Source of the DNA: a virus | IMG/VR virus record: IMGVR_UViG_3300044632_002025 | Length of the DNA stretch: 64,000 bases | Direction: 5' to 3' (one strand) | In this document: piece after piece, positions 564 to 46,938 of the stretch | How positions within the stretch are numbered: position 1 is the stretch's first letter | How the letters are laid out: every line of letters begins with the position of its first letter | Position numbers and translations under genes: made by a program | The notes under the pieces: model-generated | Seen by the model: only the letters and a program-made list of their open reading frames with translations | What the model was told of the DNA's origin: nothing | The model's database searches: none

Positions 564-872
564 TTAAAATTTAAATCTTCCGTAGGGGCTTAGATAGAAC
601 TCTGTAATATCCTCTTGGTTAGGTGGGAATGCCTCTACCCATTCACTTATAGCATCTATCAATAAATCTCGGTCGCCTGTCATTCGGGATAAATTCTGAT
701 AGAATACTTTGTCATCCCAGTAGAACAAGTGTACGTCTCCCAGTGGGTTTTCTAAGTCGGAAATTTCTAATCCATCTTCCGCTAGTAACTGCTCACAGGT
801 TCGGATTTGAGCAAAGATTTCTTGTAATTCACTGGTTGACAGTGTTTCTAGATACGAGAGGTAAGTAAACAT
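564..872 (-). CDS. hypothetical early protein, paralog family 1
   Basis: ORF track. SD AAGGAAACCGATT precedes the ATG. Clearly paralogous to the 1421..1723 product (MFTYLSYLETLSTSELQEIF vs MTTYLRYLETLSTSKLQEIF, shared LLAEDGLEISDLENPLGD). No function recognised. Confidence 0.65.
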   Translation of the reverse strand: MFTYLSYLETLSTSELQEIFAQIRTCEQLLAEDGLEISDLENPLGDVHLFYWDDKVFYQNLSRMTGDRDLLIDAISEWVEAFPPNQEDITEFYLSPYGRFKF

Positions 873-896
873 AATCGGTTTCCTTGTAATGTCACT

Positions 897-955
897 ATTA
901 CAGCAGTTTTTTTCGGGACTGTCAAGGGTTAACTTGGTTAAATTTTGGTTAACCC
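897..955 (-). promoter_or_regulatory. early promoter cassette, class A copy 2
   Basis: Minus strand: the same GGTTAACCAAAATTTAACCAAGTTAACCC box, TTGACA (925-920), 17 nt, TGTAAT (902-897). Confidence 0.65.
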
Positions 956-965
956 TGAGTTAAGG

Positions 966-1319
966 TTAGTCTAAGGAATCTTCATCTTCATCCTCATATT
1001 CATCTTCATCCTGCTGGTCGGTTATTTCACGGGCTATTTCCTCACAGGCATACCAGACCATGAGGTTATAAAACGAATCTAGACTTTCTAACATATCAGC
1101 CCGGCTAAAAGAGGAAATCATTTTAGCCACGTTGGTATAGCCCAATTGTTTCGCTTGTTCAACTGCATATTTCCAGATTGAAACCCCGTACTTTTCCCAT
1201 AACTTAACACAGTCCGATGTATAGGATATATAGGGAAAACCCATGTCTGCTCCGTAACTTGCAATATCTTTAGCATACTCGTAAAGATTTTCCTCAAACC
1301 ATTCTTTAAATTCTCTCAT
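966..1319 (-). CDS. hypothetical early protein with strongly acidic C-terminal tail
   Basis: Track ORF 966..1379 trimmed. Its first 20 codons (MTDPRKNAIMDT...) are the promoter -10 and leader read as protein. The real start is ATG 1319, behind GAGGAAAAAAAAAA. C-terminus is DQQDEDEYEDEDEDSLD. Confidence 0.6.
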   Translation of the reverse strand: MREFKEWFEENLYEYAKDIASYGADMGFPYISYTSDCVKLWEKYGVSIWKYAVEQAKQLGYTNVAKMISSFSRADMLESLDSFYNLMVWYACEEIAREITDQQDEDEYEDEDEDSLD

Positions 1320-1350
1320 TTTTTTTTTCCTCGTTGGTTGGTATGTGTCC

Positions 1351-1409
1351 ATTATGGCATTTTTTCGGGGGTCTGTCAAGGGTTAACTTGGTTAAATTTT
1401 GGTTAACCC
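1351..1409 (-). promoter_or_regulatory. early promoter cassette, class A copy 3
   Basis: Minus strand: GGTTAACC...GTTAACCC box (1409-1380), TTGACA (1379-1374), 17 nt, CATAAT (1356-1351). Confidence 0.7.
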
Positions 1410-1420
1410 TTGATTAAGTT

Positions 1421-1723
1421 TTAGCACTTAAATGTTCCGTAGGGTGTTAAAAAGAACTCGGCAGAACCCTTTCGGTTAGGTGGAAATGCCTCTACCCAAT
1501 CACTTATAGCATCTATCAAAAAATCTCGGTCGTCTTCCATTGTGGATAAATTCTGATAGAATATTTTTTCATCGTAGTACAAGTCGTCCCCCAGTGGGTT
1601 TTCTAAGTCGGAAATTTCTAATCCATCTTCTGCTAGTAATTGCTCACAAGTTAAGTTTTCAGCAAAGATTTCTTGTAATTTACTGGTTGACAGTGTTTCT
1701 AGATACCGGAGGTAAGTAGTCAT
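1421..1723 (-). CDS. hypothetical early protein, paralog family 1
   Basis: ORF track. SD AAGGAAACCGATT. Paralog of 564..872. Confidence 0.65.
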   Translation of the reverse strand: MTTYLRYLETLSTSKLQEIFAENLTCEQLLAEDGLEISDLENPLGDDLYYDEKIFYQNLSTMEDDRDFLIDAISDWVEAFPPNRKGSAEFFLTPYGTFKC

Positions 1724-1753
1724 AATCGGTTTCCTTTTTGGTTGGTTGTTACT

Positions 1754-1807
1754 ATTATGGCATTGTTTAAGGGGTAAAGTCTAGTGGACAGTTAAGGAAC
1801 TGTCACA
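1754..1807 (-). promoter_or_regulatory. early promoter cassette, class B copy 1 (weak -35, upstream inverted repeat)
   Basis: Minus strand: imperfect inverted repeat GTGACAG-TTCCTTAA-CTGTCCAC (1807-1784), TAGACT, 18 nt, CATAAT (1759-1754). Confidence 0.5.
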
Positions 1808-1830
1808 CTCCCTACTTAACTAGGTTAAGT

Positions 1831-2187
1831 TTATGCAGGTCTTTTATAGCCGTTTTGAAGCGGTGTGTCAAGGGCTAACCTGATTAAGTCTATGTGTGTT
1901 TTTCTGGTTTCTAGGAACTCCGGACGGTTACGGGTTATCACCTTGAGTTGATACCCGTAGTGTTCCTCTAGGTATTTTTTATCCCATGAATAATCATAAA
2001 AAGTGGCAGGGAAAGTATTGTTAATAACCTCACAGGGGTCACATGAACCATGCTCCCCTACATATTCCCATGATAGACATTTATAGGGGTTATCGCAACT
2101 GACGATTTCTGGAAAAATGGCGATAATACGCCAAGTGTATTTTTCCCATTTACGGAAGATTACTTTTGTGGGGTTTTCAGTGGTCAT
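1831..2187 (-). CDS. hypothetical early protein, paralog family 2 (Cys-containing)
   Basis: ORF track. SD GAGGAAACCAATT. Paralog of 2285..2611 (shared KVIFRKW.KY...IIAIFPEIVS.DNPY.CLSW.YVG.HGSCDP ... YGYQLKVITRNR.EFLE). Confidence 0.65.
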   Translation of the reverse strand: MTTENPTKVIFRKWEKYTWRIIAIFPEIVSCDNPYKCLSWEYVGEHGSCDPCEVINNTFPATFYDYSWDKKYLEEHYGYQLKVITRNRPEFLETRKTHIDLIRLALDTPLQNGYKRPA

Positions 2188-2211
2188 AATTGGTTTCCTC
2201 GTGATGTTTTC

Positions 2212-2269
2212 ATTATAGCACTTTTCGGGGGACTGTCAAGGGTTAACTTGGTTAAATTTTGGTTAACCC
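2212..2269 (-). promoter_or_regulatory. early promoter cassette, class A copy 4
   Basis: Minus strand: GGTTAACC...GTTAACCC box (2269-2240), TTGACA (2239-2234), 16 nt, TATAAT (2217-2212). Confidence 0.65.
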
Positions 2270-2284
2270 GTGATTAAGTTGAGG

Positions 2285-2611
2285 TTAGACTAGAAACTGT
2301 GCCATGCGAGCTATTTCAGCTTCTCTGATTTCTAGGAACTCCCGACGGTTTCGGGTTATTACCTTGAGTTGATAGCCGTATTGTTTTTCTAGGACTTCCT
2401 TATCCCAAGCATATTCATCGGGACTTGCCGGTACAGTATCGCTAATGACCCAATGGGGGTCACATGAACCATGCCCTCCTACATATACCCATGATAGACA
2501 TTCATAAGGGTTATCCGTACTGACGATTTCTGGAAAAATGGCGATAATACTATTTGAGTATTTTACCCATTTACGGAAGATTACTTTTGTCGGGGAGTTG
2601 TCAGTAGTCAT
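2285..2611 (-). CDS. hypothetical early protein, paralog family 2
   Basis: ORF track. SD AGAGGAAACATT. Paralog of 1831..2187. Confidence 0.65.
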   Translation of the reverse strand: MTTDNSPTKVIFRKWVKYSNSIIAIFPEIVSTDNPYECLSWVYVGGHGSCDPHWVISDTVPASPDEYAWDKEVLEKQYGYQLKVITRNRREFLEIREAEIARMAQFLV

Positions 2612-2640
2612 AATGTTTCCTCTTTGGTTGGTATGTTACT

Positions 2641-2692
2641 ATTATGGCATTGTCTAAGGGTAAAGTCTAGTGGACAGTTAAGGAACTGTCAC
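2641..2692 (-). promoter_or_regulatory. early promoter cassette, class B copy 2
   Basis: Near-identical to 1754..1807: CATAAT (2646-2641), TAGACT-like -35, and the inverted repeat GTGACAG..CTGTCCAC (2692-2669). Confidence 0.5.
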
Positions 2693-2737
2693 ACTCCCTA
2701 CTTAACTAGGTTGGATTGAGTTTAACTTAGTTGAACT

Positions 2738-3130
2738 CTATTCTAAGTAAATCCATCCACGAATGGCCATAGAGTCGCACTCACCAAAATTTTTTGAAGC
2801 TTCAGAAAGTCGGTCTAAGACCGCCTTATCACAACCTTTCTCATCCCAGAACCCAGAACCATAACGATTACGGTTTAGATAGAAGTTATGACCAACGTGG
2901 TCTTCGCTAAACCCAGACTCTAGAAAGATATTAATATCCTCTTGGTTTTCGCTTACGAATCGTTCTACATCATCCCGTGCGGACAGTAGTGATTTTTTGG
3001 TGAAACCGTGACCCATTTTAGGGAAATCCTCTCCATTTTCCCCCTGACAACACCATTCTGCGGCCGTTAAATAACCACTTATAAAGGGGAAAACATCATC
3101 AGGGACGTGGTTAGGGTTAAATTGGGGCAT
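2738..3130 (-). CDS. hypothetical early protein
   Basis: Track ORF 2738..3217 trimmed to ATG 3130 (MPQFNPNHV...), which has AGGAG 8 nt upstream. The longer version would overlap the upstream gene by 56 nt. Confidence 0.55.
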   Translation of the reverse strand: MPQFNPNHVPDDVFPFISGYLTAAEWCCQGENGEDFPKMGHGFTKKSLLSARDDVERFVSENQEDINIFLESGFSEDHVGHNFYLNRNRYGSGFWDEKGCDKAVLDRLSEASKNFGECDSMAIRGWIYLE

Positions 3131-3161
3131 ATTTTTGGCTCCTGTGCTTGGTTTTAAGGGT

Positions 3162-3434
3162 TTAAGTCTGTGTGTCAAGATTAAATTTCTTGCCAGAGTA
3201 GGTTTTTTTGCAATCATTACACTGGAACACGGAGTAAGGTTTTCCGTTTACATCCTTTTTAGTGGCTCGTTTCCGAACATTAAATGAACCGCAATGGGGG
3301 CATCGTTTTCCGACTAGGTATTCATAAAAACCTTTAGATTTTTTTAACCATTGTTCATCGGAAATAATTCCTTCTCCCCAATCTGATAAATCGGGCAAAA
3401 TTTTGGACAGAATTGGTAATCTTGAATGAGTCAT
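3162..3434 (-). CDS. small zinc-ribbon protein
   Basis: 90 aa with CPHC-x19-CNDC, a four-Cys ribbon pattern, and a basic C-terminal half. Confidence 0.55.
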   Translation of the reverse strand: MTHSRLPILSKILPDLSDWGEGIISDEQWLKKSKGFYEYLVGKRCPHCGSFNVRKRATKKDVNGKPYSVFQCNDCKKTYSGKKFNLDTQT

Positions 3435-3467
3435 ACGTTTTAATTGGTAAGGGTTAAATGGGGTTAG

Positions 3468-3527
3468 ATTGGGTTAGGAAGATTCACTACTTGTCAAGGG
3501 TTAACTAGGTTAAATTTTGGTTAACCC
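3468..3527 (-). promoter_or_regulatory. class A cassette copy 5 (poor -10)
   Basis: The GGTTAACCAAAATTTAACCTAGTTAACCC box and TTGACA (3497-3492) are present. The hexamer 17-18 nt downstream is only ACCCAA/CCCAAT. Confidence 0.35.
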
Positions 3528-3554
3528 TTGATTAAGGTTAGGACAGGGTTAATT

Positions 3555-4172
3555 CTAATTGGATACCGTCTTCCCAACGAGTAACATTAGTGCATCAAGT
3601 AAATCCGACCGTTGTGGTGTGCTTAAATCTTCAAATCCGAAACTACCATGTAAACCCTGATATACTTCACATATACTAACTGTTTCATCGTTTAGATAGT
3701 CTAAGAATGGATTTATGACCTTTAGTAAGTCTTCTGGGGATACCAATAGGTCTATTTCATGACGATACTTATAGGCTATTTTGTCCTCTAATTCTGGTAA
3801 TATCTCCAAAATTTCCTTAGCACACTCATTACATCCTGTCTCGTTCCAATATTCCATCCATTTTTCATTTAGTATTTCACCGTACACTTGTTCGTCTAGC
3901 AGGTAATAAACGGTCTTTGTCTTCTCAATAAGGTTGTCAATCTCTTCCACTAGGGGACTATCCTTTTTTAACAGGATGGCTGTAAACCGTCCGAAAAACC
4001 CACGAAAACTAGCTTCTATACAGTCCTCATTGTTAATAAAACGGGATAGCACTCGATAGTTCGCCATATCCATTAAATCCGACGCATCGGACTGTGAATA
4101 GACAACATAATATCCTTCGTAGTTTATGCCAAAGAAGTTATCTTGGCATAATTTCAGGTGTTTCGCTTTCAT
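3555..4172 (-). CDS. hypothetical early protein
   Basis: ORF track, 205 aa. SD AAGGAAGGAAAAA precedes the ATG. No family recognised. Confidence 0.55.
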   Translation of the reverse strand: MKAKHLKLCQDNFFGINYEGYYVVYSQSDASDLMDMANYRVLSRFINNEDCIEASFRGFFGRFTAILLKKDSPLVEEIDNLIEKTKTVYYLLDEQVYGEILNEKWMEYWNETGCNECAKEILEILPELEDKIAYKYRHEIDLLVSPEDLLKVINPFLDYLNDETVSICEVYQGLHGSFGFEDLSTPQRSDLLDALMLLVGKTVSN

Positions 4173-4185
4173 TTTTTCCTTCCTT

Positions 4186-4247
4186 GATTGGTTTAGATTG
4201 GTTTAGATTGGGTTAGATAGGGTTAGATTGGGTTAGATTGGGCTAGT
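4186..4247. repeat. six tandem 10-bp units (GATTGGKTTA)n
   Basis: The units gattggttta, gattggttta, gattgggtta, gatagggtta, gattgggtta and gattgggcta can be read directly. On the minus strand this is (CCAATCTAAC)n, directly upstream of the SD of 3555..4172. Confidence 0.8.
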
Positions 4248-4515
4248 AGGTATGAAATCCCTTGCTATCGAAGCAAAATAACTCCATATAAGTTCGAGAA
4301 ATTTTAGAATGAACAAAAGCCTTAATCTTTATTTGATTTTCTGGCATCCAAGCTTCTAAAGTAGTATAATATGACTTTAAGAAGCTTTTTAGTTGTGCAT
4401 TATTCTTGACTTCTAAATCAAAGCTTAATCGATTTTGAATCTCGCCAGTTGTATCCTTAATTAAGCGATTTTCAGAGTTGCGAACTTCAAAACAAATAAC
4501 AAATTTTTCCGACAT
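4243..4515 (-). CDS. hypothetical early protein
   Basis: ORF track, 90 aa. SD AGAGGGCAAA. No promoter of its own, so probably co-transcribed with 4573..4776. Confidence 0.5.
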   Translation of the reverse strand: MSEKFVICFEVRNSENRLIKDTTGEIQNRLSFDLEVKNNAQLKSFLKSYYTTLEAWMPENQIKIKAFVHSKISRTYMELFCFDSKGFHTY

Positions 4516-4572
4516 TTTGCCCTCTTTTGTGTTTCTACTGTTTACCGATAACTGATAACTGATGACTGATAA

Positions 4573-4776
4573 TTAATCCTCTAATTCCCAATCTACATAA
4601 TCGAGATTATCACGCCAGTCAAGCAGATTGGGCATCTCATTCTCATCCCCAAAACTAAGCGTGATAGCCGGGTAGATGTTTTCAAGCAATTCTAAGGCTT
4701 GTTTTTTGCTAGAAGCGGGCAAGGTTACTTCCAATTCAATGCGAAGTATTCCAGTAAATTCTTTAAGTTTTGTCAT
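4573..4776 (-). CDS. hypothetical small early protein
   Basis: Track ORF 4573..4824 trimmed. The N-terminal MTDQMKNAIMDT is promoter sequence. The real start is ATG 4776 (MTKLKEF), behind GAGGAAACA. Confidence 0.45.
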   Translation of the reverse strand: MTKLKEFTGILRIELEVTLPASSKKQALELLENIYPAITLSFGDENEMPNLLDWRDNLDYVDWELED

Positions 4777-4795
4777 TGTTTCCTCGTTGGTATCC

Positions 4796-4860
4796 ATTAT
4801 GGCATTTTTCATCTGGTCTGTCAAGTCTTTTTGGAGTGGACAGTTTAGGAAGTGTCCACT
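4796..4860 (-). promoter_or_regulatory. early promoter cassette, class B copy 3
   Basis: Minus strand: inverted repeat AGTGGACA-N10-TGTCCACT (4860-4835), TTGACA (4824-4819), 17 nt, CATAAT (4801-4796). Confidence 0.7.
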
Positions 4861-4886
4861 GTCTAAGCCCTTAGCTACGGGTTATA

Positions 4887-5189
4887 TTAGTCTTCATCGG
4901 AGTAACAATCCCTGAATTTATATTCACTTTCAGGGTCTGTCCAGTCTATAACTACATTCTCCGATTTAATTTCCAAGTCTGCCATAAAATCAGTTGGCAT
5001 TCCCTGAAAATCCCCAGTATTATACAGTAACCATTCCTCTATTCCTTCTTTAACATCTCCATTCTGTTTTATTTTTTCCTCAATGCCATCTAATTGATAG
5101 CTGTCTAGGAAAATCTCTTGACACTGTTCTTGACCGTACCAACCGTACCCGATTAGTCTTACGAAGCTTTTAACTACTATGTACTTCAT
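4887..5189 (-). CDS. hypothetical early protein
   Basis: Track ORF 4887..5255 trimmed to ATG 5189 (MKYIVVK), behind AGGAAACCAAAAATC. The longer N-terminus, MTVQKNNAIIDT, is again promoter sequence. Confidence 0.5.
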   Translation of the reverse strand: MKYIVVKSFVRLIGYGWYGQEQCQEIFLDSYQLDGIEEKIKQNGDVKEGIEEWLLYNTGDFQGMPTDFMADLEIKSENVVIDWTDPESEYKFRDCYSDED

Positions 5190-5226
5190 GATTTTTGGTT
5201 TCCTGTTTGTTTTGGTTGATGTGTCT

Positions 5227-5291
5227 ATTATGGCATTGTTTTTCTGGACTGTCAACCTTTTTTGGGGTGGACAGTTTAGGAAGTGTCCACT
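5227..5291 (-). promoter_or_regulatory. early promoter cassette, class B copy 4
   Basis: GTGGACA-N10-TGTCCAC (5290-5267), TTGACA (5255-5250), 17 nt, CATAAT (5232-5227). Confidence 0.7.
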
Positions 5292-5517
5292 AGGGGTTGA
5301 ATTGGGGATAACTGTCTCTCAAACGTCCCCTGTACTCTTGACAGTATTCACTAAAGTCAAAACTGTTACTTCCCATATAGATTGTATGCACCAATTGAGT
5401 ACCGTGCAAATGGTACACCCTGCGACTGAAAAATCCTACTCCCCGTTCTATATATCGGGGGAAAATTTCCCCATTGGGTTTAGGGAGATTACCTATAAAT
5501 ATTTTGCTCTCGTCCAC
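5290..5517 (-). CDS. hypothetical early protein (GTG start)
   Basis: ORF track. GTG start at 5517, behind CAGGAGTCAAACAA. 75 aa. Confidence 0.4.
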   Translation of the reverse strand: MDESKIFIGNLPKPNGEIFPRYIERGVGFFSRRVYHLHGTQLVHTIYMGSNSFDFSEYCQEYRGRLRDSYPQFNP

Positions 5518-5550
5518 TTGTTTGACTCCTGTTTTTCGGCTTATGTGTCT

Positions 5551-5615
5551 ATTATGGCATTGTTCATCTGGTCTGTCAAGTCTTTTTGGAGTGGACAGTT
5601 TAGGAAGTGTCCACT
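5551..5615 (-). promoter_or_regulatory. early promoter cassette, class B copy 5
   Basis: AGTGGACA-N10-TGTCCACT (5615-5590), TTGACA (5579-5574), 17 nt, CATAAT (5556-5551). Confidence 0.7.
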
Positions 5616-5658
5616 AGGGGTTTTACTAGGGATACTTCACATTGTTTTGATTGGTTCC

Positions 5659-5755
5659 CACTTGTTTGACTCCTGTTTTTCTTTCGATGTCACTACTATA
5701 GCAGTGTTTTCTATGGTAGTGCAACCCCTAGTGGACACTTTGATAATTGGCACAC
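5659..5755 (-). repeat. decayed sixth class B cassette with truncated leader
   Basis: 5659-5680 (cacttgtttgactcctgttttt) repeats the SD and GTG leader at 5513-5534. The ORF behind it is only 11 codons. The -10 is TATAGT, the -35 is lost and the inverted repeat is half degraded. Confidence 0.5.
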
Positions 5756-5786
5756 TGGGTAATATTTACCCCTCTTCCCTATGTTT

Positions 5787-5800
5787 AGTACAAGTGTACC
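5787..5800. promoter_or_regulatory. LexA-box-like palindrome AGTACAAGTGTACC
   Basis: Arms GTACA/TGTAC. Fits RGTACNNNDGTWCB, the cyanobacterial LexA consensus as I recall it. Copy 1 of 4. Confidence 0.45.
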
Positions 5801-5921
5801 AAAGGATGGGCTTCATCGGCTGACGTGAAAGCCTTATTTGTACCTGCAATTCATTTACCACAGGTTAAGATTTGGTTATGGTTGGCGGGAAAGCCTTATT
5901 CGTGCCTGCAATGTTTTTACA

Positions 5922-5975
5922 CTTAACCCAGTCTTAACCTCTCTTAACCCAGTCTTAACCCAGTCTTAACCCATC
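5922..5975. repeat. five tandem ~11-bp units (CTTAACCCAGT)n
   Basis: The units cttaacccagt, cttaacctct, cttaacccagt, cttaacccagt and cttaacccat can be read directly. Confidence 0.75.
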
Positions 5976-5987
5976 TTCCCTATGTCT

Positions 5988-6001
5988 AGTACAAGTGTAC
6001 C
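5988..6001. promoter_or_regulatory. LexA-box-like palindrome AGTACAAGTGTACC
   Basis: Copy 2. Lies in a ~75-bp direct repeat of the 5775-5850 segment. Confidence 0.45.
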
Positions 6002-6089
6002 AAAGGGTGGGCTTCATCGGCTGACGTGAGACTCAGATTTGTGCCTGCAATGTTTTTTACGCCCTAAACTCCCCTTTAACACTTGGGCT

Positions 6090-6103
6090 AGTACAAGTGT
6101 ACT
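6090..6103. promoter_or_regulatory. LexA-box-like palindrome AGTACAAGTGTACT
   Basis: Copy 3, with 6-bp arms AGTACA/TGTACT. Lies 20 nt upstream of the late-type motif at 6122. Confidence 0.45.
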
Positions 6104-6121
6104 AGGGGTGGAGGAGGTGTC

Positions 6122-6136
6122 CGCCCAAACTATATT
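6122..6136 (+). promoter_or_regulatory. late-type motif site L1
   Basis: CGCCCAAAC is immediately followed by TATATT. Lies 36 nt upstream of ATG 6172. Confidence 0.5.
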
Positions 6137-6171
6137 GGACAAGATAATTATTCCTAGCTAGGATAGAAAAT

Positions 6172-6456
6172 ATGGCTTTAACTTTTGCCCCCCCAGTCCC
6201 CGCAAGTGGACATTATCAACTAGACCCTTTATATGTTAACTCCGGTGTTGACATCGTTCGTGCTTCTTACGGTTATGATTTGAATGGTACTGCTGATGCT
6301 GACCAATTACTTCAACGTCAAGCCATCATTGCTCTTTTAGAGTTTGCTATCGAAGATACCGCTTTCGTTAATGCTATTCAGGCAATTGCCGCTACTGCTG
6401 GTGTTACTACCCCTGTTTCCTTCGTTTCGGCGTTGGTTACTAAATTAACTGCTTAA
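6172..6456 (+). CDS. hypothetical protein
   Basis: ORF track, 94 aa, Ala/Val-rich. No family recognised. Confidence 0.5.
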   Translation: MALTFAPPVPASGHYQLDPLYVNSGVDIVRASYGYDLNGTADADQLLQRQAIIALLEFAIEDTAFVNAIQAIAATAGVTTPVSFVSALVTKLTA

Positions 6457-6503
6457 TCCGTCCTAATCTGGGTCTGATTCAGCCTTAACCAAGCCCCCCA
6501 GTC

Positions 6504-6743
6504 ATGGGTGGGTATTTTTTTGTACCTATTCCCCTTATTGCAAGCATATTATTATTAAGTCCCAAACCCCTTTCCATAATGGTTTTTTTATTGCTTTTAG
6601 CTTCTTTAATGGTCTTTGCCATTACTATTGTAGCCATTGTTGGTTTACTGTTGGCTTACCGTCAACCTCCTGAACCTCAACGCTTTGATGATTTATCCGA
6701 TTTCGATTTATTAGACCCTAGGGAATTTGCTGACCGTAATTAA
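6504..6743 (+). CDS. small membrane protein (two predicted TM helices), holin candidate
   Basis: Two hydrophobic stretches, FFVPIPLIASILLLSPKPLSIMVFLLLLASLMVFAITIVAIVGLLLA, are followed by a charged tail. Confidence 0.45.
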   Translation: MGGYFFVPIPLIASILLLSPKPLSIMVFLLLLASLMVFAITIVAIVGLLLAYRQPPEPQRFDDLSDFDLLDPREFADRN

Positions 6744-6854
6744 ACCGTCAACAACCACACATTTTTGTTGTGTTCTAATGGGTGATAAGGGGTCATCCTT
6801 TTGGGTGATGGGTGTGGATAACTTTAACCCCCTTGAACAGTACAAATGAACTAA

Positions 6855-6876
6855 TATATAACTGTATAGTTATATA
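6855..6876. repeat. AT-rich inverted repeat TATATAACT-GTAT-AGTTATATA
   Basis: 9-bp perfect arms read directly. A near LexA-like box, AGTACAAATGAACT, sits at 6839-6852. Confidence 0.6.
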
Positions 6877-7033
6877 ATTATATGGTCAAAAAGTGCTTTT
6901 TGTGTGGCTGAAATCAGCCCCTAACCCTAAACCTTCCTAATTTCGCCTCCAAAATGATGTATAATGATGTATATCAAACTCCTGGTCGGTATTGGTTTTC
7001 TCTGGTCAACCTAAAGGATTGTGAGACAATTAT

Positions 7034-7166
7034 GAAAAAGAGTTATGGTGGATTTTACCATTATTTGGGGTTGAGGGGGAAAAAGAGTTATGGTGAATTT
7101 CACCATTATTATCTTAGGTGGAAAAAGAGTTATGGTAATTTTTACCATTATTATCTTGGGTTGGGG
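7034..7166. repeat. three tandem ~45-bp repeats, each carrying a palindrome (ATGGTGAA-T-TTCACCAT type)
   Basis: Each unit starts AAAAAGAGTT. The palindromes are ATGGTGGATTTTACCAT, ATGGTGAATTTCACCAT and ATGGTAATTTTTACCAT. Each unit ends in TTATT(AT)CTTRGGTTG(R)GGG. Confidence 0.8.
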
Positions 7167-7258
7167 GGGGTGGGGATTTGTTGAGAAATGTTTCTTCGGT
7201 TAAAGCTCTTTGAGTGTCTTATCATACCTAAGATTGGCTCAGGGTCAGCCTTTTAGAC

Positions 7259-7270
7259 TATACGCCCAAT
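7259..7270 (+). promoter_or_regulatory. late-type motif site L2
   Basis: TATACGCCCAAT, 37 nt upstream of ATG 7307. Confidence 0.45.
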
Positions 7271-7306
7271 CCAGAAATTGGATTCTAAAACTATTTATAG
7301 AGGGAT

Positions 7307-7798
7307 ATGAGAAAGAAAGACGTTAGAATGAGCAAAGAGGTCGTGGAACAAACCAAAAAATTGTTCCAAATCTATAAACTGGGAGGGGTGTCTGTTAGGA
7401 CTTTAGCAGAACGGTTCGATATTCCCTGGACTACTTTAAGAGATAGATTTCGTTCCCAATATGGAAAACAGTATACCAAACATAGAGCAGATGAAGGGAC
7501 TGTCCATGCTGTGATTAAAGAACATTTAAGTCGTCTAGAAGGTATTCACTTACGCAGGGCGGCTGAATGGTATCGGAAGAATCAAGCAGAACTCCTAATG
7601 CAAGCTCTTGAAGACCAAATGAATCCAGGGCAACGACCTAAAGTATATACCGAACGTCGTATGGATTCTGATACCAAAGCTATGTGTCGTTTGAACCATG
7701 ATATAGGGTCTTCTCCTTATTTATCCGATGGTAGGTATGAACCTAAAATCGATGGTGAAGATTCAGACGAACCTTTACCATCAGACTTTTGGGATTAA
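7307..7798 (+). CDS. helix-turn-helix DNA-binding protein (small-terminase or site-specific DNA-binding candidate)
   Basis: 163 aa. The N-terminal GGVSVRTLAERFDIPWTTLRDRF is HTH-like and the C-terminus is acidic. A late-type motif and the 3x palindromic repeat array lie upstream. Confidence 0.55.
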   Translation: MRKKDVRMSKEVVEQTKKLFQIYKLGGVSVRTLAERFDIPWTTLRDRFRSQYGKQYTKHRADEGTVHAVIKEHLSRLEGIHLRRAAEWYRKNQAELLMQALEDQMNPGQRPKVYTERRMDSDTKAMCRLNHDIGSSPYLSDGRYEPKIDGEDSDEPLPSDFWD

Positions 7799-7859
7799 TT
7801 GGGTCTAACGGGGTCTAACGGGGTCTGACCCATCCTCAACCCTACCTGACCCCTCCTGA

Positions 7860-7880
7860 CCCCTTTGGAAGGGGTTTTTT
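7860..7880 (+). terminator. rho-independent terminator after 7307..7798
   Basis: CCCCTT-tgg-AAGGGG followed by TTTTTT. Confidence 0.7.
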
Positions 7881-7971
7881 ATTGTCAACCCCCAGTCTGC
7901 CCCGGTTAAGCTGGGGGGTGGTTCAAATGTACTAGACAAAGATGAACTGGGGGGGGTAGGGGGGGGTTCTC

Positions 7972-8108
7972 TTTTTTCAGGGCGACCCTTCCTATTCCAT
8001 CCCCCCCAAGTTTGACAGGGCTTAACTGGGTTTGACCCCTAGACCCCCTTTTACCTTGGGTATGAGTATTTATACCTATCCCTAAAGACATAGTACGGGG
8101 TTTGACCC
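7972..8108 (+). repeat. ~137-bp direct repeat R1, copy a
   Basis: TTTTTCAGGGCGACCC...GGTATGAGTATTTATACCT...AGTACGGGGTTTGACCC. About 90% identical to 8312..8448. Confidence 0.85.
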
Positions 8109-8125
8109 GACCAGACCCCGTTTAA

Positions 8126-8189
8126 CCACTTCCACCCAACCTGACCCAGTTAGCTAAGGGTGGAAGTGGGGGGGTTCTTGGGTTTTTTT
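8126..8189 (+). other. 12-bp perfect stem-loop with distal T-run
   Basis: CCACTTCCACCC (8126-8137) pairs with GGGTGGAAGTGG (8158-8169) across a 20-nt loop. TTTTTTT follows at 8183-8189, 13 nt after the stem. Confidence 0.4.
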
Positions 8190-8311
8190 ATGGAGACCTC
8201 CTTGATTCCACTTGGTCGGATTGGGTTGAATCTGGTTTGACCCTGCCAGCCCCAGCCTAAGCCAACCAGCCCCAGCCATTCCTTACTAAGGGGGTAGGGG
8301 GGTTAGGTTGG

Positions 8312-8448
8312 TTTTTCAGGGCGACCCCCCTTATTTCATCCCTCCCAAGTTTAACAGGGCTTAACTGGGTTTGACCCCCCAGACCCCCTTTTACCTTGGG
8401 TATGAGTATTTATACCTATTTCTAAAGACATAGTACGGGGTTTGACCC
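8312..8448 (+). repeat. direct repeat R1, copy b
   Basis: See 7972..8108. A third, partial copy of the G-rich leader (GGTAGGGGGGGTTAGGTTGGTTTTT) is at 8497-8521. Confidence 0.85.
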
Positions 8449-8670
8449 TGCCAGACCAGTCTTAGCCAACCAGTCCCAACTATTCTATACTAGGGGGGTA
8501 GGGGGGGTTAGGTTGGTTTTTATAACGGACAGTTATAACTCCGCACCTGGTCTGACCTGTTTTAGCCCGGTTCAACCCCAGTTTAATACATTTGTACTAT
8601 ATAAATCCACAACTGGGGGGGTTCGAGGCATTTTTCACCCCCCTAGTTTCCCCTTTAGACTCAGATGAAA

Positions 8671-8750
8671 CCCAGTCTGGCCATGTTCAACCCAGTCTGG
8701 TCATGTTCAACCCCGTCTGGCCATGCTTAACCCAGTCTGGTACAAGTGTA
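8671..8750 (+). repeat. four tandem 20-bp iteron-like units
   Basis: The units cccagtctggccatgttcaa, cccagtctggtcatgttcaa, ccccgtctggccatgcttaa and cccagtctggtacaagtgta can be read directly. Confidence 0.8.
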
Positions 8751-8752
8751 CT
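8739..8752. promoter_or_regulatory. LexA-box-like palindrome GGTACAAGTGTACT
   Basis: Copy 4, fused to the last iteron unit. Confidence 0.4.
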
Positions 8753-9616: not shown

Positions 9617-10354
9617 TTACTCTAAACCAATTTGTTTGATTTTGCCAATTTCACAAGCCTTTTTGACAGCTTCAAATGGTTCTAAACCATCTTCAACAAT
9701 AAATCTGGAAGCTAATTCTTCTGCAAACTTTAGCTCTCTTAAGGCTTCAGTAGGAATATGGTCACGGATAGCTCCTGATTCCTTAAGTTGATAGTGGTCT
9801 TTGGCTTGTTTTGATTTAACGCCTAAGACTAGCCCATTGAGATAGTCTGTAGAATTAGGATAGATGAACTTTTTGTAATTAGAACTTAGTTCTGGGTTAT
9901 TTTCCAAATAATATTTGAAAGAGTCAGTTAGGGTGCGACGGGCGATTTTGCTTTCAACTCTGGTTTGGAGACGGTCATTGCGTTCTTCTTCAGTACGTTG
10001 AATATTGAAAGCATGGTCTAAGCGACGTTCTAAAGATTCTACCAAACAGGAAAAAGCTACGGCTTGGCATTTTTTGTTGCCCAGTTGAGCATAAGCACTT
10101 ACTATAGTACAAAAGGTCTCCATACCCATAAGTCTAGCTAATGCGTTAGTACCCTCTACATGAACCTTCTCAACAGAAAGATTGTCCAGTGCCAGTAAGG
10201 GTTTGGCGTATTTTTTACCGGTTGAGTCACCTATAAGAATATCTAATGCTTTGCAACCATTTTGGGACATAGCATAGCTACCATCAGGTAATTGATACCC
10301 TTCAAGTTGGATGCCGCCTAATTTAATTGTGGCTTTTTTGGCTTTGTTGTTCAT
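9617..10354 (-). CDS. hypothetical DNA-binding-like protein
   Basis: Track ORF trimmed to ATG 10354 (MNNKAKKATIKLGG...). The N-terminal DGSYAMSQNG resembles DGKTCGMSQSA in 45987..46826. No firm family call. Confidence 0.5.
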   Translation of the reverse strand: MNNKAKKATIKLGGIQLEGYQLPDGSYAMSQNGCKALDILIGDSTGKKYAKPLLALDNLSVEKVHVEGTNALARLMGMETFCTIVSAYAQLGNKKCQAVAFSCLVESLERRLDHAFNIQRTEEERNDRLQTRVESKIARRTLTDSFKYYLENNPELSSNYKKFIYPNSTDYLNGLVLGVKSKQAKDHYQLKESGAIRDHIPTEALRELKFAEELASRFIVEDGLEPFEAVKKACEIGKIKQIGLE

Positions 10355-10398
10355 AGCTAAATTCCAGTCTGTGAAAAAGAATAACAGACCATAAATCA

Positions 10399-10427
10399 AT
10401 TATAGCAATTTGTCAATGTTCAGACAA
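10399..10427 (-). promoter_or_regulatory. early-type promoter for 9617..10354
   Basis: Minus strand: TTGTCT (10427-10422), 17 nt, TATAAT (10404-10399). Confidence 0.55.
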
Positions 10428-11645: not shown

Positions 11646-12692
11646 ATGGCAAAGCTTAATTTAGCAGTAGTCAACACGATTTTTTCGGAATTGTTGACCA
11701 AAGAGGTAAACCGTGAAGCAACCTTCTTGTCGTTGCTGTCGAAGTTACCCGAACGTAAGTCCAATATCCAGTGGTCTGTAGGAGTTGGTGGAACGCAAGC
11801 AACGGGAGTAGCAATTACTGGTTCAGCACCTGCGGCCAGCCAAGACGTAACTATTCCGGCACAGTTACCCATCAATAGTTCTTCGTTACAATCTACTTTC
11901 ACCTTGAACTTGAAAGAGATTGAGGAAGCTAAAGAAATGGTTTCCAATGCAGAATTACGTCAGTTGCTGTCTGCACAAATGCGTAATGCAGTAGACGAAC
12001 AAGCTACTACTTTAAACCGTAAATTATACAATGGAACCGGTGCGATTTCTGATGGAGGAATCATCGGTCTATCCATTGCGGCTGGTACTGGAGATTATGC
12101 GGGTATTCCTTCAGCGACCTACCCTTTATGGCAAGGACAGGTCGTAGATTGCTGGGATGCCGCCGCCGCCGCCGCCGACAAACGCCAAGCCTTAAAAACC
12201 GACTTTATGCTGGAATTAGACCGTAAAATCCGCTACCGTCCTGGTCGGTATGACCTAATCCTAACTACCCCTAAAGTCGTTGAACAATACAAGAAAGTCT
12301 TTGAAGCCAATCGTAGCTTCCAAATCATGACTTTTGACGGCAACCGAGTTCCTTTGGTGGACTTAGGATTCAACGTGGCTGGTTACATGGGAACCCCAAT
12401 CATCGATGATGTGTATTGTAACCGTACCCGTACTGCGGCTGAATCGGCCATTACCACTGCTCTCGGTACTGATGTTGACGAAGGTGTAATGTATTTCTTA
12501 CGTCGTGAAGACTTAACGTTCTATTCCGCACCCGTACAGAACTCGTTTTCGGCTAACGGTGTTTATACCTTAATGCGTCAACTGGCTCAAACTAGCTTGT
12601 ATGTGGACAACTTCGTAGTTGGTTGTATTGCCCAGTTGCAATTAGCCACTCGGAAAAACGTTGGAGTTATCCGTAATATTAAAGTCGCCTAA
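11646..12692 (+). CDS. major capsid protein (HK97-fold type, inferred)
   Basis: 348 aa. Follows the scaffold-like gene, shows strong codon bias (cgt/ggt/acc) and is followed by a strong terminator. No sequence-family check was possible. Confidence 0.65.
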   Translation: MAKLNLAVVNTIFSELLTKEVNREATFLSLLSKLPERKSNIQWSVGVGGTQATGVAITGSAPAASQDVTIPAQLPINSSSLQSTFTLNLKEIEEAKEMVSNAELRQLLSAQMRNAVDEQATTLNRKLYNGTGAISDGGIIGLSIAAGTGDYAGIPSATYPLWQGQVVDCWDAAAAAADKRQALKTDFMLELDRKIRYRPGRYDLILTTPKVVEQYKKVFEANRSFQIMTFDGNRVPLVDLGFNVAGYMGTPIIDDVYCNRTRTAAESAITTALGTDVDEGVMYFLRREDLTFYSAPVQNSFSANGVYTLMRQLAQTSLYVDNFVVGCIAQLQLATRKNVGVIRNIKVA

Positions 12693-12813: not shown

Positions 12814-13521
12814 ATGGAAGGGAACATACATTATAGGTCAAATATGGCTATCATTCCAAGCAATCAGACTGAATTACTCGCTTTCGTTTCCCAAGATGCC
12901 AGTGAACAAGGGAATTTGTCAATCCGTGGCGTGGCGAAAATGGTGGGAGTAGACGATATGTCTATCATCCGAGCCTGTAAATTTCTAGAGATATACATGG
13001 AGGATGAAACTATAAAGCCGTCCGATACCGTTCTACTATTGGATTATTTATCTGAAACAGATAGTACATTATTATCCGAAAGTTTTGTTAGACGCTTTGG
13101 CTTACTGGGTATTTATGCTTCGACAATCCATTTGTTTGATGGGGTGAGTTTAGGACAAGCTTATAAGACAGCCGCACTAAGTTCTGAGGATTGCCTCAAA
13201 GGATTATTTCAGCAAACTAACAAGGGGAAAAGTAAGGTTACAGGCTATATTTATTGGATACAGCAAGCTACAACAGGTTACACAAAGATAGGGGTTAGTG
13301 TAGACCCCTATAAAAGACTAAGTTCATTACAAGTGGCATCGCCTACCCGTTTAACCTTAATACATAAAAAGCGGTATAATAATTGTGATTTATATGAAAT
13401 AGAGAAACGTATTCACAGACAATATAAAGAATATCATGTCTTAGGCGAATGGTTTGCGCTACCTCAAGATGTGGTCACTAATTTAACTAAGTCCAATAGT
13501 AAGTCTAACGGATTAGGCTAA
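12814..13521 (+). CDS. T5orf172 / GIY-YIG-superfamily domain protein (free-standing homing-endonuclease-like)
   Basis: The C-terminal half, GYIYWIQQATTGYTKIGVSVDPYKRLSSLQVASPTRLTLIH...EIEKRIHRQYKEYHVLGEWF, matches the T5orf172 pattern I know. The N-terminal LSIRGVAKMVGVDDMSIIRA is HTH-like. Confidence 0.6.
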   Translation: MEGNIHYRSNMAIIPSNQTELLAFVSQDASEQGNLSIRGVAKMVGVDDMSIIRACKFLEIYMEDETIKPSDTVLLLDYLSETDSTLLSESFVRRFGLLGIYASTIHLFDGVSLGQAYKTAALSSEDCLKGLFQQTNKGKSKVTGYIYWIQQATTGYTKIGVSVDPYKRLSSLQVASPTRLTLIHKKRYNNCDLYEIEKRIHRQYKEYHVLGEWFALPQDVVTNLTKSNSKSNGLG

Positions 13522-13643: not shown

Positions 13644-14003
13644 ATGCTGTTCACACCAGATGAAATATCTAGAATTAAAATAGCACTTGGGTATGAAGAA
13701 TTTCCTAAGTATGAAGCTGATGTGCAGTTCATGCTAGAAGTGATTGAAGACGAAGTGCGCTATAACAGAATCTTATTTCTACTGGACAAAGTGGAAGAAA
13801 TAGATAGTAAAATACAACAATATGTAGAGAAACTCTATGTAGAACAGGTAGAGGGTATAACTTTGAACTATGAAAAAGTGGTACTGGGATTGAAAAAAGA
13901 AGGTCTGCGGAGACTAAAAGAATTGTCTTGGCAGACCAACTTAGATATAAGAAACTCCCCGTTCAAAGGCGGGGAGTCAGGGTTTAGCTTTGTCGCCTAT
14001 TGA
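13644..14003 (+). CDS. hypothetical protein (late)
   Basis: ORF track, 119 aa. A late-type motif lies upstream. Confidence 0.5.
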   Translation: MLFTPDEISRIKIALGYEEFPKYEADVQFMLEVIEDEVRYNRILFLLDKVEEIDSKIQQYVEKLYVEQVEGITLNYEKVVLGLKKEGLRRLKELSWQTNLDIRNSPFKGGESGFSFVAY

Positions 14004-14446
14004 GAAAAGGGAGGTAGTTTACAGGTTTCTGTTGTTTTGATTAGGAACTGGAGTTGCTCGGCTTTCATCAAGACATCAGAGTAGTCTACCCCATCTTGAA
14101 TATGCCAAGACCAATATTTTAGGTCATCCATGACTTCTTCCAATTCCAATCGGGTAGCGATTTCTGCTTGACGTGCCATGTCTTTGTCTTCTGGGGGTAG
14201 AAATTGTACAGTACCGCCTTTGAAGGGGGGATTCTCGGTAATTAACCAAATTACTTGAGGTACGATACCTGTTTTTATTTTAGTCCAAGCAAGGTAATAC
14301 TTTCCTCGGCAAAAAACAACTGCCATATCCCCATTTTGCTTTAACTCAGTCACTTCAAAAATCGCCCCCCCACAAGGTTCTCCCTCAAAACAATCTTGAC
14401 CCCGTAGGATGAAGACATCGCCTAATTCGAGAAATCCCTTAGTCAT
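13997..14446 (-). CDS. hypothetical protein (early-type promoter)
   Basis: ORF track, 149 aa. SD AAGGAG precedes the ATG. Confidence 0.5.
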   Translation of the reverse strand: MTKGFLELGDVFILRGQDCFEGEPCGGAIFEVTELKQNGDMAVVFCRGKYYLAWTKIKTGIVPQVIWLITENPPFKGGTVQFLPPEDKDMARQAEIATRLELEEVMDDLKYWSWHIQDGVDYSDVLMKAEQLQFLIKTTETCKLPPFSQ

Positions 14447-14675: not shown

Positions 14676-15632
14676 CTAAAGATGAGAATCTTGGTCAGAA
14701 TCAAAAAAGTCCTTTGCTTCTAAATCGGAGTTAAATGGCTTAACCCATTGGGTAATTTTTTGGCGGATTTCAGTCCCATTAAGAATCCTGGTATCTTTTT
14801 CCATAGCAGAGTCACCAGACTCACCTGTAAAAAATTTACGGGCAGGAACCCAACCAATAAACCCGCCACACATCACAGATGCGTCGATGGCTACGGCAGT
14901 ATGCTCTAAAGCTGACCAATGCTTTGAGCTAACTAGACGTAAAAATAGTTTAACATCCTTTTCCACATCCATATTCCCTTCGTGGTTTAGGTAAGACACT
15001 CTCGCACAACGAGAGGCTGACAGAGCAATGAGTAAAAGAGTATTACCTTTGTACAGTTCTCTTTCCTCATGGGTTACATAGGGCAGATGCAAACCACCAT
15101 CTGATAGGATATAAGCAGAACATTTGTGGTAAGCCTCAAGCATTAAGCGGGCTACTTTTCTAATCTCTGGCTGGGCTTTTTCAGAAGTACGAAGTTCAAA
15201 AAAGTTGAACCATTGAGTGCCGGTCAGCACCACATCCACCATTTGAAAAGGCTCAGTAAGTCGGTTCACAATTTCTTTATGAACCCCAAGCAGGTTCAAT
15301 AAATTAGCCCAAAACCGTTGGGAGTGCATGGAGCAGAACCATACAAGGTCAGCTAATTTAGCCTTTAGACCCGTCAGGGGCTTACCAGCTTGCATTCCTG
15401 ACTTATTCGTACCCCATTGGTCAGGGTGATAGGGATTCTCTACTAATTTTCGGTCTTTTTTCTTAATCGGAACAGCCCGATTCGACTCGGTATTAGAGGA
15501 CAAAATACGGTGTTTATTGAGTTGAGCTAAGACAAATCGGGGAATACGAATTTGAAAAGTGGTAATAGTGTCGCCTGTGATGGAATTGACACTTTGTTCG
15601 ATGACCTTAGCGTGGTATTGGGTAGGTTTCAA
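14676..15632 (-). CDS. thyX: FAD-dependent thymidylate synthase (ThyX-like)
   Basis: Carries a ThyX signature variant, KHRILSSNTESNRA (canonical RHRxxSxxxxSxR). Also has downstream ...SASRCARVSY... and ...HWSALEHTAV. The TTG start overlaps the sigma gene stop (TTGA). Confidence 0.65.
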   Translation of the reverse strand: MKPTQYHAKVIEQSVNSITGDTITTFQIRIPRFVLAQLNKHRILSSNTESNRAVPIKKKDRKLVENPYHPDQWGTNKSGMQAGKPLTGLKAKLADLVWFCSMHSQRFWANLLNLLGVHKEIVNRLTEPFQMVDVVLTGTQWFNFFELRTSEKAQPEIRKVARLMLEAYHKCSAYILSDGGLHLPYVTHEERELYKGNTLLLIALSASRCARVSYLNHEGNMDVEKDVKLFLRLVSSKHWSALEHTAVAIDASVMCGGFIGWVPARKFFTGESGDSAMEKDTRILNGTEIRQKITQWVKPFNSDLEAKDFFDSDQDSHL

Positions 15633-16156
15633 GAATTTGCTCCTAATTTCTTAATTTTTCTGACTTCTGACTTATAAGTTCGCAGGGTAAGACCCAGAGT
15701 TTTAGCTATTACCTCTTGGGTAAGACCCATTAGACGTTTGCGGACAATTTGCTTTTGGAGGGGGGTGAGTTTTGACCAGAAGAGGTTCAGGGTCATTTGG
15801 TATTCAGTGGAATCGACTAGGGATGCCATATTGTCTAGGGGAAAATCTCGAAGTTGGCATTCCATGACATAGGTTTTGTGCCGAATAAGGCGGAACCTTT
15901 TGCGAATATCCAACCAGCAATAGCTGGTGAGCGTTCCTTTGTTGGGGTTCCAAGTCTTAAGTTTTTCTAGAACCAGACAAAGACCTTCCTGAAAGTAATC
16001 CTCTCCTTTGACTGACGTATCACGCATAGCACGACGGATAGCGGGGATTTGGGATTTAACCAAATTTAGTTTAGACGTTTCACAGGCTTGTTGTTCGATG
16101 GTTAGATGACAGTATTCCATGACAGAGGTTTTGAATTTTAGACGGCTTAACCCCAC
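15629..16156 (-). CDS. sigma-70-family RNA polymerase sigma factor (phage-encoded)
   Basis: The region 2-like segment is GTLTSYCWLDIRKRF. The region 4 HTH-like segment is LTPLQKQIVRKRLMGLTQEVIAKTLGLTLRTYKSEVRKI. The start is uncertain: GTG 16156 or ATG 16120. Confidence 0.6.
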   Translation of the reverse strand: MGLSRLKFKTSVMEYCHLTIEQQACETSKLNLVKSQIPAIRRAMRDTSVKGEDYFQEGLCLVLEKLKTWNPNKGTLTSYCWLDIRKRFRLIRHKTYVMECQLRDFPLDNMASLVDSTEYQMTLNLFWSKLTPLQKQIVRKRLMGLTQEVIAKTLGLTLRTYKSEVRKIKKLGANS

Positions 16157-46841: not shown

Positions 46842-46866
46842 AAAGAGGTCTGGAGCAAAAGACCTT

Positions 46867-46938
46867 CTGGGTTTAGCTTATCGGATAAGCACCGTCCTCA
46901 TAAGACGGCATAGGTGGGTTCGACTCCCACAACCCAGA
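46867..46938 (+). tRNA. tRNA with anticodon CAT (Met, or Ile2 if lysidine-modified); no encoded CCA
   Basis: Folded by hand. Acceptor CTGGGTT/AACCCAG. D arm GCTT-ATCGGAT-AAGC. Anticodon arm CCGTC-CTCATAA-GACGG. Variable loop CATAG. T arm GTGGG-TTCGACT-CCCAC. Discriminator A. 72 nt. Confidence 0.85.

Follow-up and report, generated by a model that had tools for sequence, protein, structure and literature searches.

Seven LexA-like palindromes in the control region of a Mic1-like Microcystis phage suggest that the virus reads the stress state of its host

Introduction

In a 64,000-nucleotide stretch of viral DNA (IMG/VR record IMGVR_UViG_3300044632_002025; the whole stretch is called the window here), copies of a 14-bp palindrome resembling the cyanobacterial LexA box recur within a 3-kb non-coding stretch (5787–8752), the hub, which lies between a leftward early operon and rightward capsid and regulator genes. 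The question raised by this locus is which protein reads them. An initial annotation of the window had pointed to four such palindromes and proposed that they couple the phage to the SOS-type regulator of its host. We find seven, and our best reading of them, to which we assign a probability of about one half, is that they are operators for the host cyanobacterial LexA repressor; the cluster suggests that the phage reads the stress state of its host.

The window belongs to a Mic1-like Microcystis siphophage, whose capsid protein (11646–12692) is 82% identical to that of Mic1 and whose gene order is largely syntenic with that phage. The Mic1 transcriptome falls into early, middle and late classes, with a phage sigma factor among the middle genes and the virion (terminase) and lysis genes among the late ones (PMC11237433). 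Lysogeny in this family has only been suggested, for Mic1, which was reported with turbid plaques and ParABS (PMC7156551), and lysogeny in Microcystis is almost uncharacterised (PMC12054034). A literature search returned no title or abstract linking LexA to a cyanophage.

Results

Seven LexA-like boxes in the non-coding hub

The 12-mer core GTACAAGTGTAC is present in the window in exactly four exact copies (5788, 5989, 6091 and 8740), which together with three one-mismatch matches make seven, against 0.27 expected at one mismatch or fewer. The exact copies are the cores of the four GTACA-AG-TGTAC palindromes of the initial annotation, all of which we recovered (AGTACAAGTGTACC at 5787 and 5988, AGTACAAGTGTACT at 6090 and GGTACAAGTGTACT at 8739). 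The pattern to which it had likened them, RGTACNNNDGTWCB, is indeed the published LexA box of Nostoc (Anabaena) PCC 7120 (PMC3091678). This pattern gives 11 strand-hits in the window, corresponding to six distinct sites: boxes 1–4 and two further sites at 49218 (minus strand) and 52254. The mean in 100 dinucleotide-preserving shuffles was 0.95, in agreement with the roughly one chance match per 64 kb estimated earlier, and none of the 100 shuffles reached 11.

We also ran the weight-matrix scan that the initial annotation had proposed, using a LexA matrix built from 48 published cyanobacterial sites (PMC3091678, Table 1) with a shuffle control (n = 100). Eight positions in the window scored at least 15 bits, compared with 0.28 expected in shuffles, and 11 scored at least 12 bits, compared with 2.1 expected; seven of these 11 fall within 5787–8752, including a site at 8585 that had not been reported. 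The hub boxes are as follows.

5787–5800: box 1, AGTACAAGTGTACC; opens an 86-nt duplicated unit (5765–5850); 17.3 bits on the minus strand
5988–6001: box 2, AGTACAAGTGTACC; in the second copy of the duplicated unit (5966–6051), directly 3' of an 11-bp iteron array
6090–6103: box 3, AGTACAAGTGTACT, with 8-nt arms CTAGTACA/TGTACTAG; 18.6 bits, the top score in the window
8739–8752: box 4, GGTACAAGTGTACT; fused to the final unit of a 20-bp iteron array of 3.6 copies; 15.5 bits
6839–6852: box 5, AGTACAAATGAACT, a diverged copy; 15.4 bits
7920–7933: box 6, GGTTCAAATGTACT (minus strand AGTACATTTGAACC); 14.7 bits
8585–8598: box 7, AATACATTTGTACT (minus strand AGTACAAATGTATT); 17.5 bits, absent from the initial annotation

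The seven boxes score 14.7–18.6 bits; the median of the training set is 16.0, the verified Nostoc lexA box scores 17.0, and the values for the published recA and ssb sites are 14.7 and 13.7 bits. Boxes 1–4 match the strict pattern, whereas the other three are 13-of-14 or matrix-level matches. Matches at 13 of 14 positions had been reported at 6839 and 63293, where we find them, and on the minus strand at 7921–7934, which should read 7920–7933. Boxes 5, 6 and 7 differ from the exact four mostly by changes that the matrix tolerates, in the spacer or from GTAC to GTTC or GTAT, so the signal is more than one repeated sequence. Against the wider cyanobacterial consensus AGTACWNWTGTACT (PMC3091678) box 3 matches at 13 of 14 positions, and box 7 is the same, except for its first base, as the lexA boxes of marine picocyanobacteria (GGTACAAATGTATT; PMC3091678, Table 1). 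A looser AnLexA-box, AGT-N4-11-ACT, has also been described (bioRxiv 10.1101/2022.06.06.494920). Sites for NtcA were considered and rejected because the spacing does not fit, as is read directly from the sequence: GTA-N8-TAC for NtcA versus GTA-N6-TAC in the boxes.

Two further comparisons carried no weight. The four exact boxes fit a Microcystis-specific consensus, TASTRNNNNTGTWC, that Honda et al. are reported to have given in 2018 and that has no match in the 300 nt upstream of Microcystis lexA. A scan of IMG/VR for TAGTACAAGTGTAC gave, outside the clade of the window phage and among the matches listed, single chance-level matches only, and is uninformative.

The four exact boxes had all been called intergenic, which is probably right. 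Box 1 lies inside a mechanical open reading frame (ORF), 5179–5823, that one public gene caller reports, but this ORF runs antisense through the repeated early promoters, lacks a homologue in Mic1, and contains repeat units that are found again in each of the three frames.

Outside the hub, two more matrix sites were recorded:

52254–52267: AGTACATGGGTACT (minus strand AGTACCCATGTACT); 16.1 bits; in the 3' end of the FEN gene, with a middle-type promoter ~30 nt downstream
722–735, minus strand: CGTACACTTGTTCT, inside ORF 564–872; a perfect AGTACACTTGTACT in relatives L002, L003 and L015

One relative, L175, has a strong intergenic box, AGTACATTTGTATT (14335–14348; 17.0 bits), upstream of a nucleoside deoxyribosyltransferase gene, ~4 kb past the right end of the window; it is absent from L174.

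Microcystis LexA carries the Nostoc recognition helix

The proposal in the initial annotation depended on a host LexA of matching specificity, and the likely host genus has one. A scan of a genome collection with the back-translated peptide TNLESLTQ, which we took to be the N-terminus of Microcystis LexA, did retrieve lexA, in 12 Microcystis genomes. Its 204-aa product (L031 1542–2153) shares 68% identity with Nostoc LexA (P0024), and the recognition helix SPAPIQSRLE is identical in the two; thus, a host LexA of the required specificity exists. Also kept in the Microcystis protein are the Ala-Gly cleavage site (AAGG) and the catalytic residues, Ser in GDSM and Lys in LKRF; it is predicted to be cleavable, so that DNA damage could relieve repression. 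By consensus fit, matrix excess and host recognition helix alike, the hub palindromes are predicted members of the LexA-box class at the sequence level.

Around lexA itself, 96 kb of Microcystis chromosome contain a single match that reaches 13 bits. In L031 and 11 other Microcystis loci, the stretch from −75 to −26 relative to the lexA ATG holds three degenerate LexA-like boxes (AGTTAAGATGTACT, AACACAAATGAACT and AGTACAAATTATCT); the middle one has a 13-nt identity, ACAAATGAACTAA, with phage box 5, which is not significant alone. The sites upstream of Microcystis lexA (≤10.5 bits) fall far short of the phage boxes, which also score above any operator scored here for Microcystis.

The boxes are conserved in close relatives and absent from Mic1

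All seven boxes are kept in close relatives with 99% capsid identity (IMG/VR and JGI contigs L002–L008, L015–L019, L023–L024 and L172). In an alignment of the hub across four lineages, 2 of 98 columns vary within the boxes and 19 of 112 within their 8-nt flanks (Fisher p = 3e-4), and 374 of 2236 non-coding columns vary overall. Both variable box columns are spacer positions, and they record an exact inversion of AAGT to ACTT in box 3 of L004, L005, L006 and L023 that keeps the arms. Box 1 is invariant in L006, L007 and L015 and reads GTACTAGTGTAC in L002 and GTGCTAGTGTAC in L023. Boxes 4 and 6 are invariant in the relatives, box 5 is invariant while both its flanks vary in L007 and L015, and box 7 is invariant though the surrounding 8400–8600 is the most variable part of the region.

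Conservation bears on the idea that the boxes have no function and are debris of repeats, a short palindrome having been copied around recombination-prone non-coding DNA and fitting a degenerate consensus by accident. The region is indeed full of repeat families, boxes 1 and 2 lie in a duplication (86 nt at 88% identity; the initial annotation had the duplication right and its length, ~75 bp, too short), and the relatives have diverged too little to give a strong footprint (permutation p = 0.055). However, the homology around boxes 3 and 4 spans only ~23 nt, so that little more than the box was copied, and the spacer inversion in box 3 left both arms intact. Moreover, the three diverged boxes fit the matrix and stay invariant amid varying flanks and surroundings, and the eight positions at or above 15 bits compare with 0.28 expected. 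We regard this explanation as very improbable.

Mic1 also has a repeat-rich non-coding hub beside its cement and HTH (helix-turn-helix) genes, in a different gene order, and shares with the window the palindrome AGTATTTATAC (8065, 8405 and, on the minus strand, 9253) and the late motif CGCCCAA. Unlike the window phage, Mic1 has no strict LexA-pattern match or intergenic cluster; its "LexA-like" matrix matches proved to be codon-driven repeats in KTSC genes. As contigs of the Mic1 clade lack the cluster as well, it is specific to the clade of the window, and the boxes were gained, or retained, solely there. The shared palindrome is of 6+2+6 form, AAGTAT-TT-ATACTT, with seven copies in Mic1 (L001 11938–12480) and three here (plus strand at 8065 and 8405, minus strand at 9253); its outer AGTA/TACT tetranucleotides are the same as those of the LexA-like boxes, at a spacing 2 bp shorter.

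Iterons and a possible origin or partition function

Two boxes abut iteron arrays, both of which are built on the common core AACCCAGTCT:

5922–5977, plus strand: 11-bp iteron array, CTTAACCCAGT, 5.3 copies; copy number differs among relatives
8669–8740, plus strand: 20-bp iteron array, AACCCAGTCTGGCCATGTTC, 3.6 copies; final unit overlaps box 4

This arrangement raises the alternative that the boxes are cis-elements of a replication origin or plasmid-type partition system that act with the iterons, like dispersed centromere-like inverted repeats. The 1–2 kb of repeat-rich non-coding DNA in the hub and the lack of an overlapping promoter at most boxes are in keeping with it, as is the presence of ParA and ParB in Mic1, a proposed plasmid prophage (PMC7156551). 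In the window, however, no ParA or ParB homologue was found, and the position of Mic1 ParA is empty; the proposed parS of Mic1, a 23-bp palindrome, is unrelated to the boxes (PMC7156551). Iteron copy number varies freely among the relatives, whereas the boxes stay fixed. An origin or partition role would leave the match to the LexA consensus unexplained, and it leaves room for LexA to bind at an origin. We consider such a role improbable.

Folding of the duplicated units on both strands gave z-scores of −1.1 to +1.0 and Rfam returned noise only, and an RNA-structure reading of these units was rejected.

Boxes, promoters and the late motif

The genes and promoters that frame the hub are the following.

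5551–5579, minus strand: early promoter, the strongest of the leftward ones, TTGACA-17-CATAAT with a TG extension; marker of the early arm, with the box region diverging from that arm; second copy at 5227–5255
6122–6129, plus strand: late-promoter-like motif CGCCCAAA of the cement gene, after an 18-nt gap from box 3
6172–6456, plus strand: capsid cement protein gene (late), 70% aa identity to Mic1 gp47 "cement"; downstream of boxes 1–3
7307–7798, plus strand: HTH (Psq-type) protein gene, within the box cluster; Pfam HTH_psq, 55% identity to Mic1 gp48
6122, 7263, 8967, 10468, 16304, 26066, 35774, 36941, 54388 and 59417, plus strand: late-motif copies
39319, 45148, 47880 and 59366, minus strand: late-motif copies

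The leftward genes (564–5517) are counterparts of Mic1 early genes and are driven by near-consensus sigma70 promoters at 5579–5551 and 5255–5227. On the rightward side, box 3 ends 18 nt ahead of the late-promoter-like motif at 6122 and 69 nt ahead of the cement-gene ATG. Box 5, flanked on one side by a gene for a small membrane protein and on the other by the 42-bp repeats and HTH gene, has −35-like and −10-like hexamers around or beside it on both strands and is the sole box in a classical sigma70-like operator position. Box 6 is found just 3' of a terminator-like hairpin (7858–7876) that follows the HTH gene.

The late motif, (TAGACAATAA)CGCCCAAA, has 17 copies in the window versus 4.2 expected and is found 30–50 nt ahead of late and structural genes; the phage sigma factor (15629–16156) may recognise it. 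We considered this sigma factor or the late promoter as an explanation for the boxes and rejected it: the motif is distinct from them and is also present upstream of the cement gene of Mic1, which has no boxes. A middle-type promoter, CCCTTGACAC-N17-TGTTATACT, precedes replication genes and the sigma-factor gene (52773, 54084 and 57462 on the plus strand, 16156 on the minus strand).

Two other possible operator elements were noted. A palindrome, GTGGACA-N10-TGTCCAC, precedes each strong leftward early promoter (4830–4860, 5265–5300 and 5590–5625, with a half-site at 5722–5740), and its flanks, CTAGTGGACACTTT...TTGGCACAC, are conserved in Mic1 (L001, ~11775). Upstream of the HTH gene, 7034–7161 holds three 42-bp tandem repeats, two of them with the palindrome ATGGTGAAWTTCACCAT; after 8400–8600 this is the most variable stretch among the relatives, and it may be the HTH protein's own operator.

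Phage-encoded candidates for the reader

The searched phage sequence comprised the window and ~17 kb of flanks, of a genome of roughly 100 kb. Among ~50 ORFs and in six-frame hidden Markov model (HMM) searches of this sequence, we found no LexA-like, S24, CI or Cro ORF. For the window, the initial annotation had seen neither a CI-like repressor nor an integrase, and we likewise found no lysogeny-type integrase, CI, S24 or LexA-like gene there. A search with the capsid protein found no prophage copy in the contigs of representative (one-genome-per-species) genomes, and a DNA-polymerase-based walk toward the remaining genome reached only contigs of the Mic1 clade.

Both DNA-binding proteins encoded beside the cluster were set aside. 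The HTH protein (7307–7798) is an unlikely reader on sequence grounds, its recognition helix IPWTTLRDRF being identical in Mic1 gp48, yet Mic1 lacks the boxes. The gene for a DdrC-like protein (9617–10399) is missing from L004/L006 and L172, which keep every box; it is clade-specific and adjoins the cluster, and homologues elsewhere have contexts without boxes. Two further genes, T5orf172 and 13997–14446, are variable and not conserved across box-bearing relatives. As these phage candidates fail, host LexA is the most economical reader, and a phage protein that we did not recognise is its main rival.

The DdrC-like ORF (minus strand) is a homologue of Deinococcus DdrC (DNA damage response protein C), with a profile match to the PDB DdrC at E = 0.002; its AlphaFold model (pLDDT 82) retrieves only DdrC chains in Foldseek, over the full length (E = 1e-5 to 1e-4). 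Phages that are otherwise nearly identical differ in whether they carry the gene. Further homologues were seen in other metagenomic phage contigs, and one lies among typical cyanobacterial genes in a chromosomal context, beside a divergent XRE gene (L021).

Observations that weigh against host LexA

Several observations weigh against the reading as host LexA operators. Boxes 1, 2, 4, 6 and 7 overlap no recognisable sigma70-type promoter. Boxes 1–4 have an identical spacer, AAGT, and an identical flank, GTCT, neither of which LexA needs, and the same spacer occurs in three GAAC-type 12-mers; these features point to duplication or to a more specific reader. Boxes 1 and 2 both read GTGCTAGTGTAC in L023, which changes an arm to GTGC. 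The p value of a permutation test against random non-coding 14-mers is only 0.055, because the relatives are very close, and neither a strict pattern match nor an intergenic cluster is present in the complete Mic1 genome or in Mic1-clade contigs. On the host side, the genus is assigned solely through the 82% capsid identity to Mic1, the region upstream of Microcystis lexA holds degenerate boxes only (≤10.5 bits), and in M. aeruginosa Li et al. did not see LexA-like sites enriched between genes and called the regulon atypical. The role of LexA in Microcystis is disputed, as SOS repressor or as activator of growth genes (PMC3091678, PMC6950475).

Part of this evidence would be expected if the boxes were operators of a phage-encoded dimeric DNA-binding protein, or of a non-LexA host factor, that reads GTCT-R-GTACAAGTGTAC-Y, the likeness to LexA being convergent. 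The AAGT spacer is identical in the four GTAC-type and three GAAC-type copies, the 8-mer AAGTGTAC occurs nine times in the window against ~2.4 expected, the conserved flank lengthens the box repeat to 23 nt, and boxes 1 and 2 changed together in L023. Clade-specific boxes are what a clade-specific phage protein would produce, ~20 kb of the genome lies outside the sequence searched, and there is a precedent in phage GIL01, whose LexA homologue gp6 activates its late promoter (PMC6182141). On the other hand, the searches described above returned no LexA-like, CI, Cro or S24 ORF, the HTH and DdrC-like proteins do not fit, and T5orf172 and 13997–14446 do not follow the boxes across relatives. Boxes 5, 6 and 7 lack the AAGT spacer and GTCT flank, yet they are conserved and LexA-like. 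We hold such a specific reader other than LexA to be somewhat doubtful.

The three GAAC-type copies, GAACAAGTGTAC, are at 723 (plus strand), 3882 and 63295 (both minus strand); two of the three fall within unrelated coding sequences (codons VHLF and EQVY). Two AAGTGTAC half-sites were noted on the plus strand (10493 and 12756), one in the interval from the scaffold late motif to its ATG and the other 58 nt upstream of the T5orf172 gene.

Other features of the window

A tRNA-Met (CAT) gene (46866–46939, plus strand) lies between two clade-specific ORFs with no assigned function (45987–46826 and 46997–47839). Mobile elements include an HNH homing endonuclease (37658–38806, minus strand) and an IS605-type TnpB (39651–41081, plus strand). 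The T5orf172/GIY-YIG-like gene (12814–13521, plus strand) differs among relatives, and in some relatives (L172 1–118) a resolvase (MerR-HTH serine recombinase) is inserted between the scaffold and capsid genes.

Discussion

If the seven palindromes are host LexA operators, LexA dimers would bind AGTAC-N4-GTACT through the winged-helix recognition helix SPAPIQSRLE, and LexA on the boxes would stand in the way of rightward transcription, or of other DNA transactions, in the hub. Box 3 would act from just upstream of the cement late motif and box 5 from inside promoter-like hexamers, while the others would flank the HTH gene and the iterons. Depletion of LexA, or its inactivation by DNA damage, would then lift the hindrance. 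Binding by LexA, the sign of its effect (repression or activation) and any link to induction are inferences here. The operators might let the phage sense DNA damage via LexA, as a switch between carriage and lysis without a repressor of its own, or might titrate LexA during phage replication; we consider this functional proposal unlikely as it stands.

The closest match in sequence is the LexA box of Nostoc/Anabaena PCC 7120, the same 14-bp pseudo-palindrome, with the phage scores falling within the range of its verified lexA and recA operators. The phage boxes differ in setting: they are not in host SOS genes, seven are clustered compared with one or two per promoter, and most are not over a recognisable promoter.

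A phage that depends on its host's LexA has been described in GIL01, a Bacillus thuringiensis tectivirus in which host LexA together with gp7 forms the lysogeny repressor and gp6, a LexA homologue, acts at the late promoter (PMC4551915, PMC6182141). Like GIL01, the window phage has no detected CI-type repressor and carries several boxes of the host LexA type in its control region, and its family has been proposed to persist as an extrachromosomal prophage (PMC7156551). The GIL01 boxes, however, overlap the mapped promoters P1 and P3 and their binding is proven, whereas the boxes here are predicted and promoter overlap is mostly lacking. We found no gp6-like LexA homologue in six frames of the window or its ~17-kb flanks; a gp7 counterpart was not searched for.

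In LexA-controlled antirepressor modules (coliphage 186 tum, N15, P22-like ant), SOS is sensed via LexA rather than by CI cleavage. Mic1 gp17 has a homologue in the window, a KilA-N "antirepressor" (48353–49084), but the promoter region of the antirepressor operon (51283–51391) has no box; the boxes lie ~40 kb away, by the capsid and regulator genes.

Bloom-virus coexistence in Microcystis and the trigger of lysis are the wider questions that the hub addresses, and its seven near-consensus boxes offer a compact, testable handle on both, as well as on the role of LexA in Microcystis, where it has been proposed as an activator of cell-division genes. The boxes would serve as natural high-affinity probes for Microcystis LexA, and they give a concrete hypothesis of stress-coupled control of phage genes. 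If the operator reading is correct, the phage would use host LexA as GIL01 does, here in a cyanophage. In the less likely case that the phage also senses damage through LexA or titrates it, it would be the first LexA-coupled cyanophage and would tie the dynamics of bloom viruses to UV and oxidative stress; titration of LexA by the replicating phage genome would reprogramme LexA-dependent host genes.

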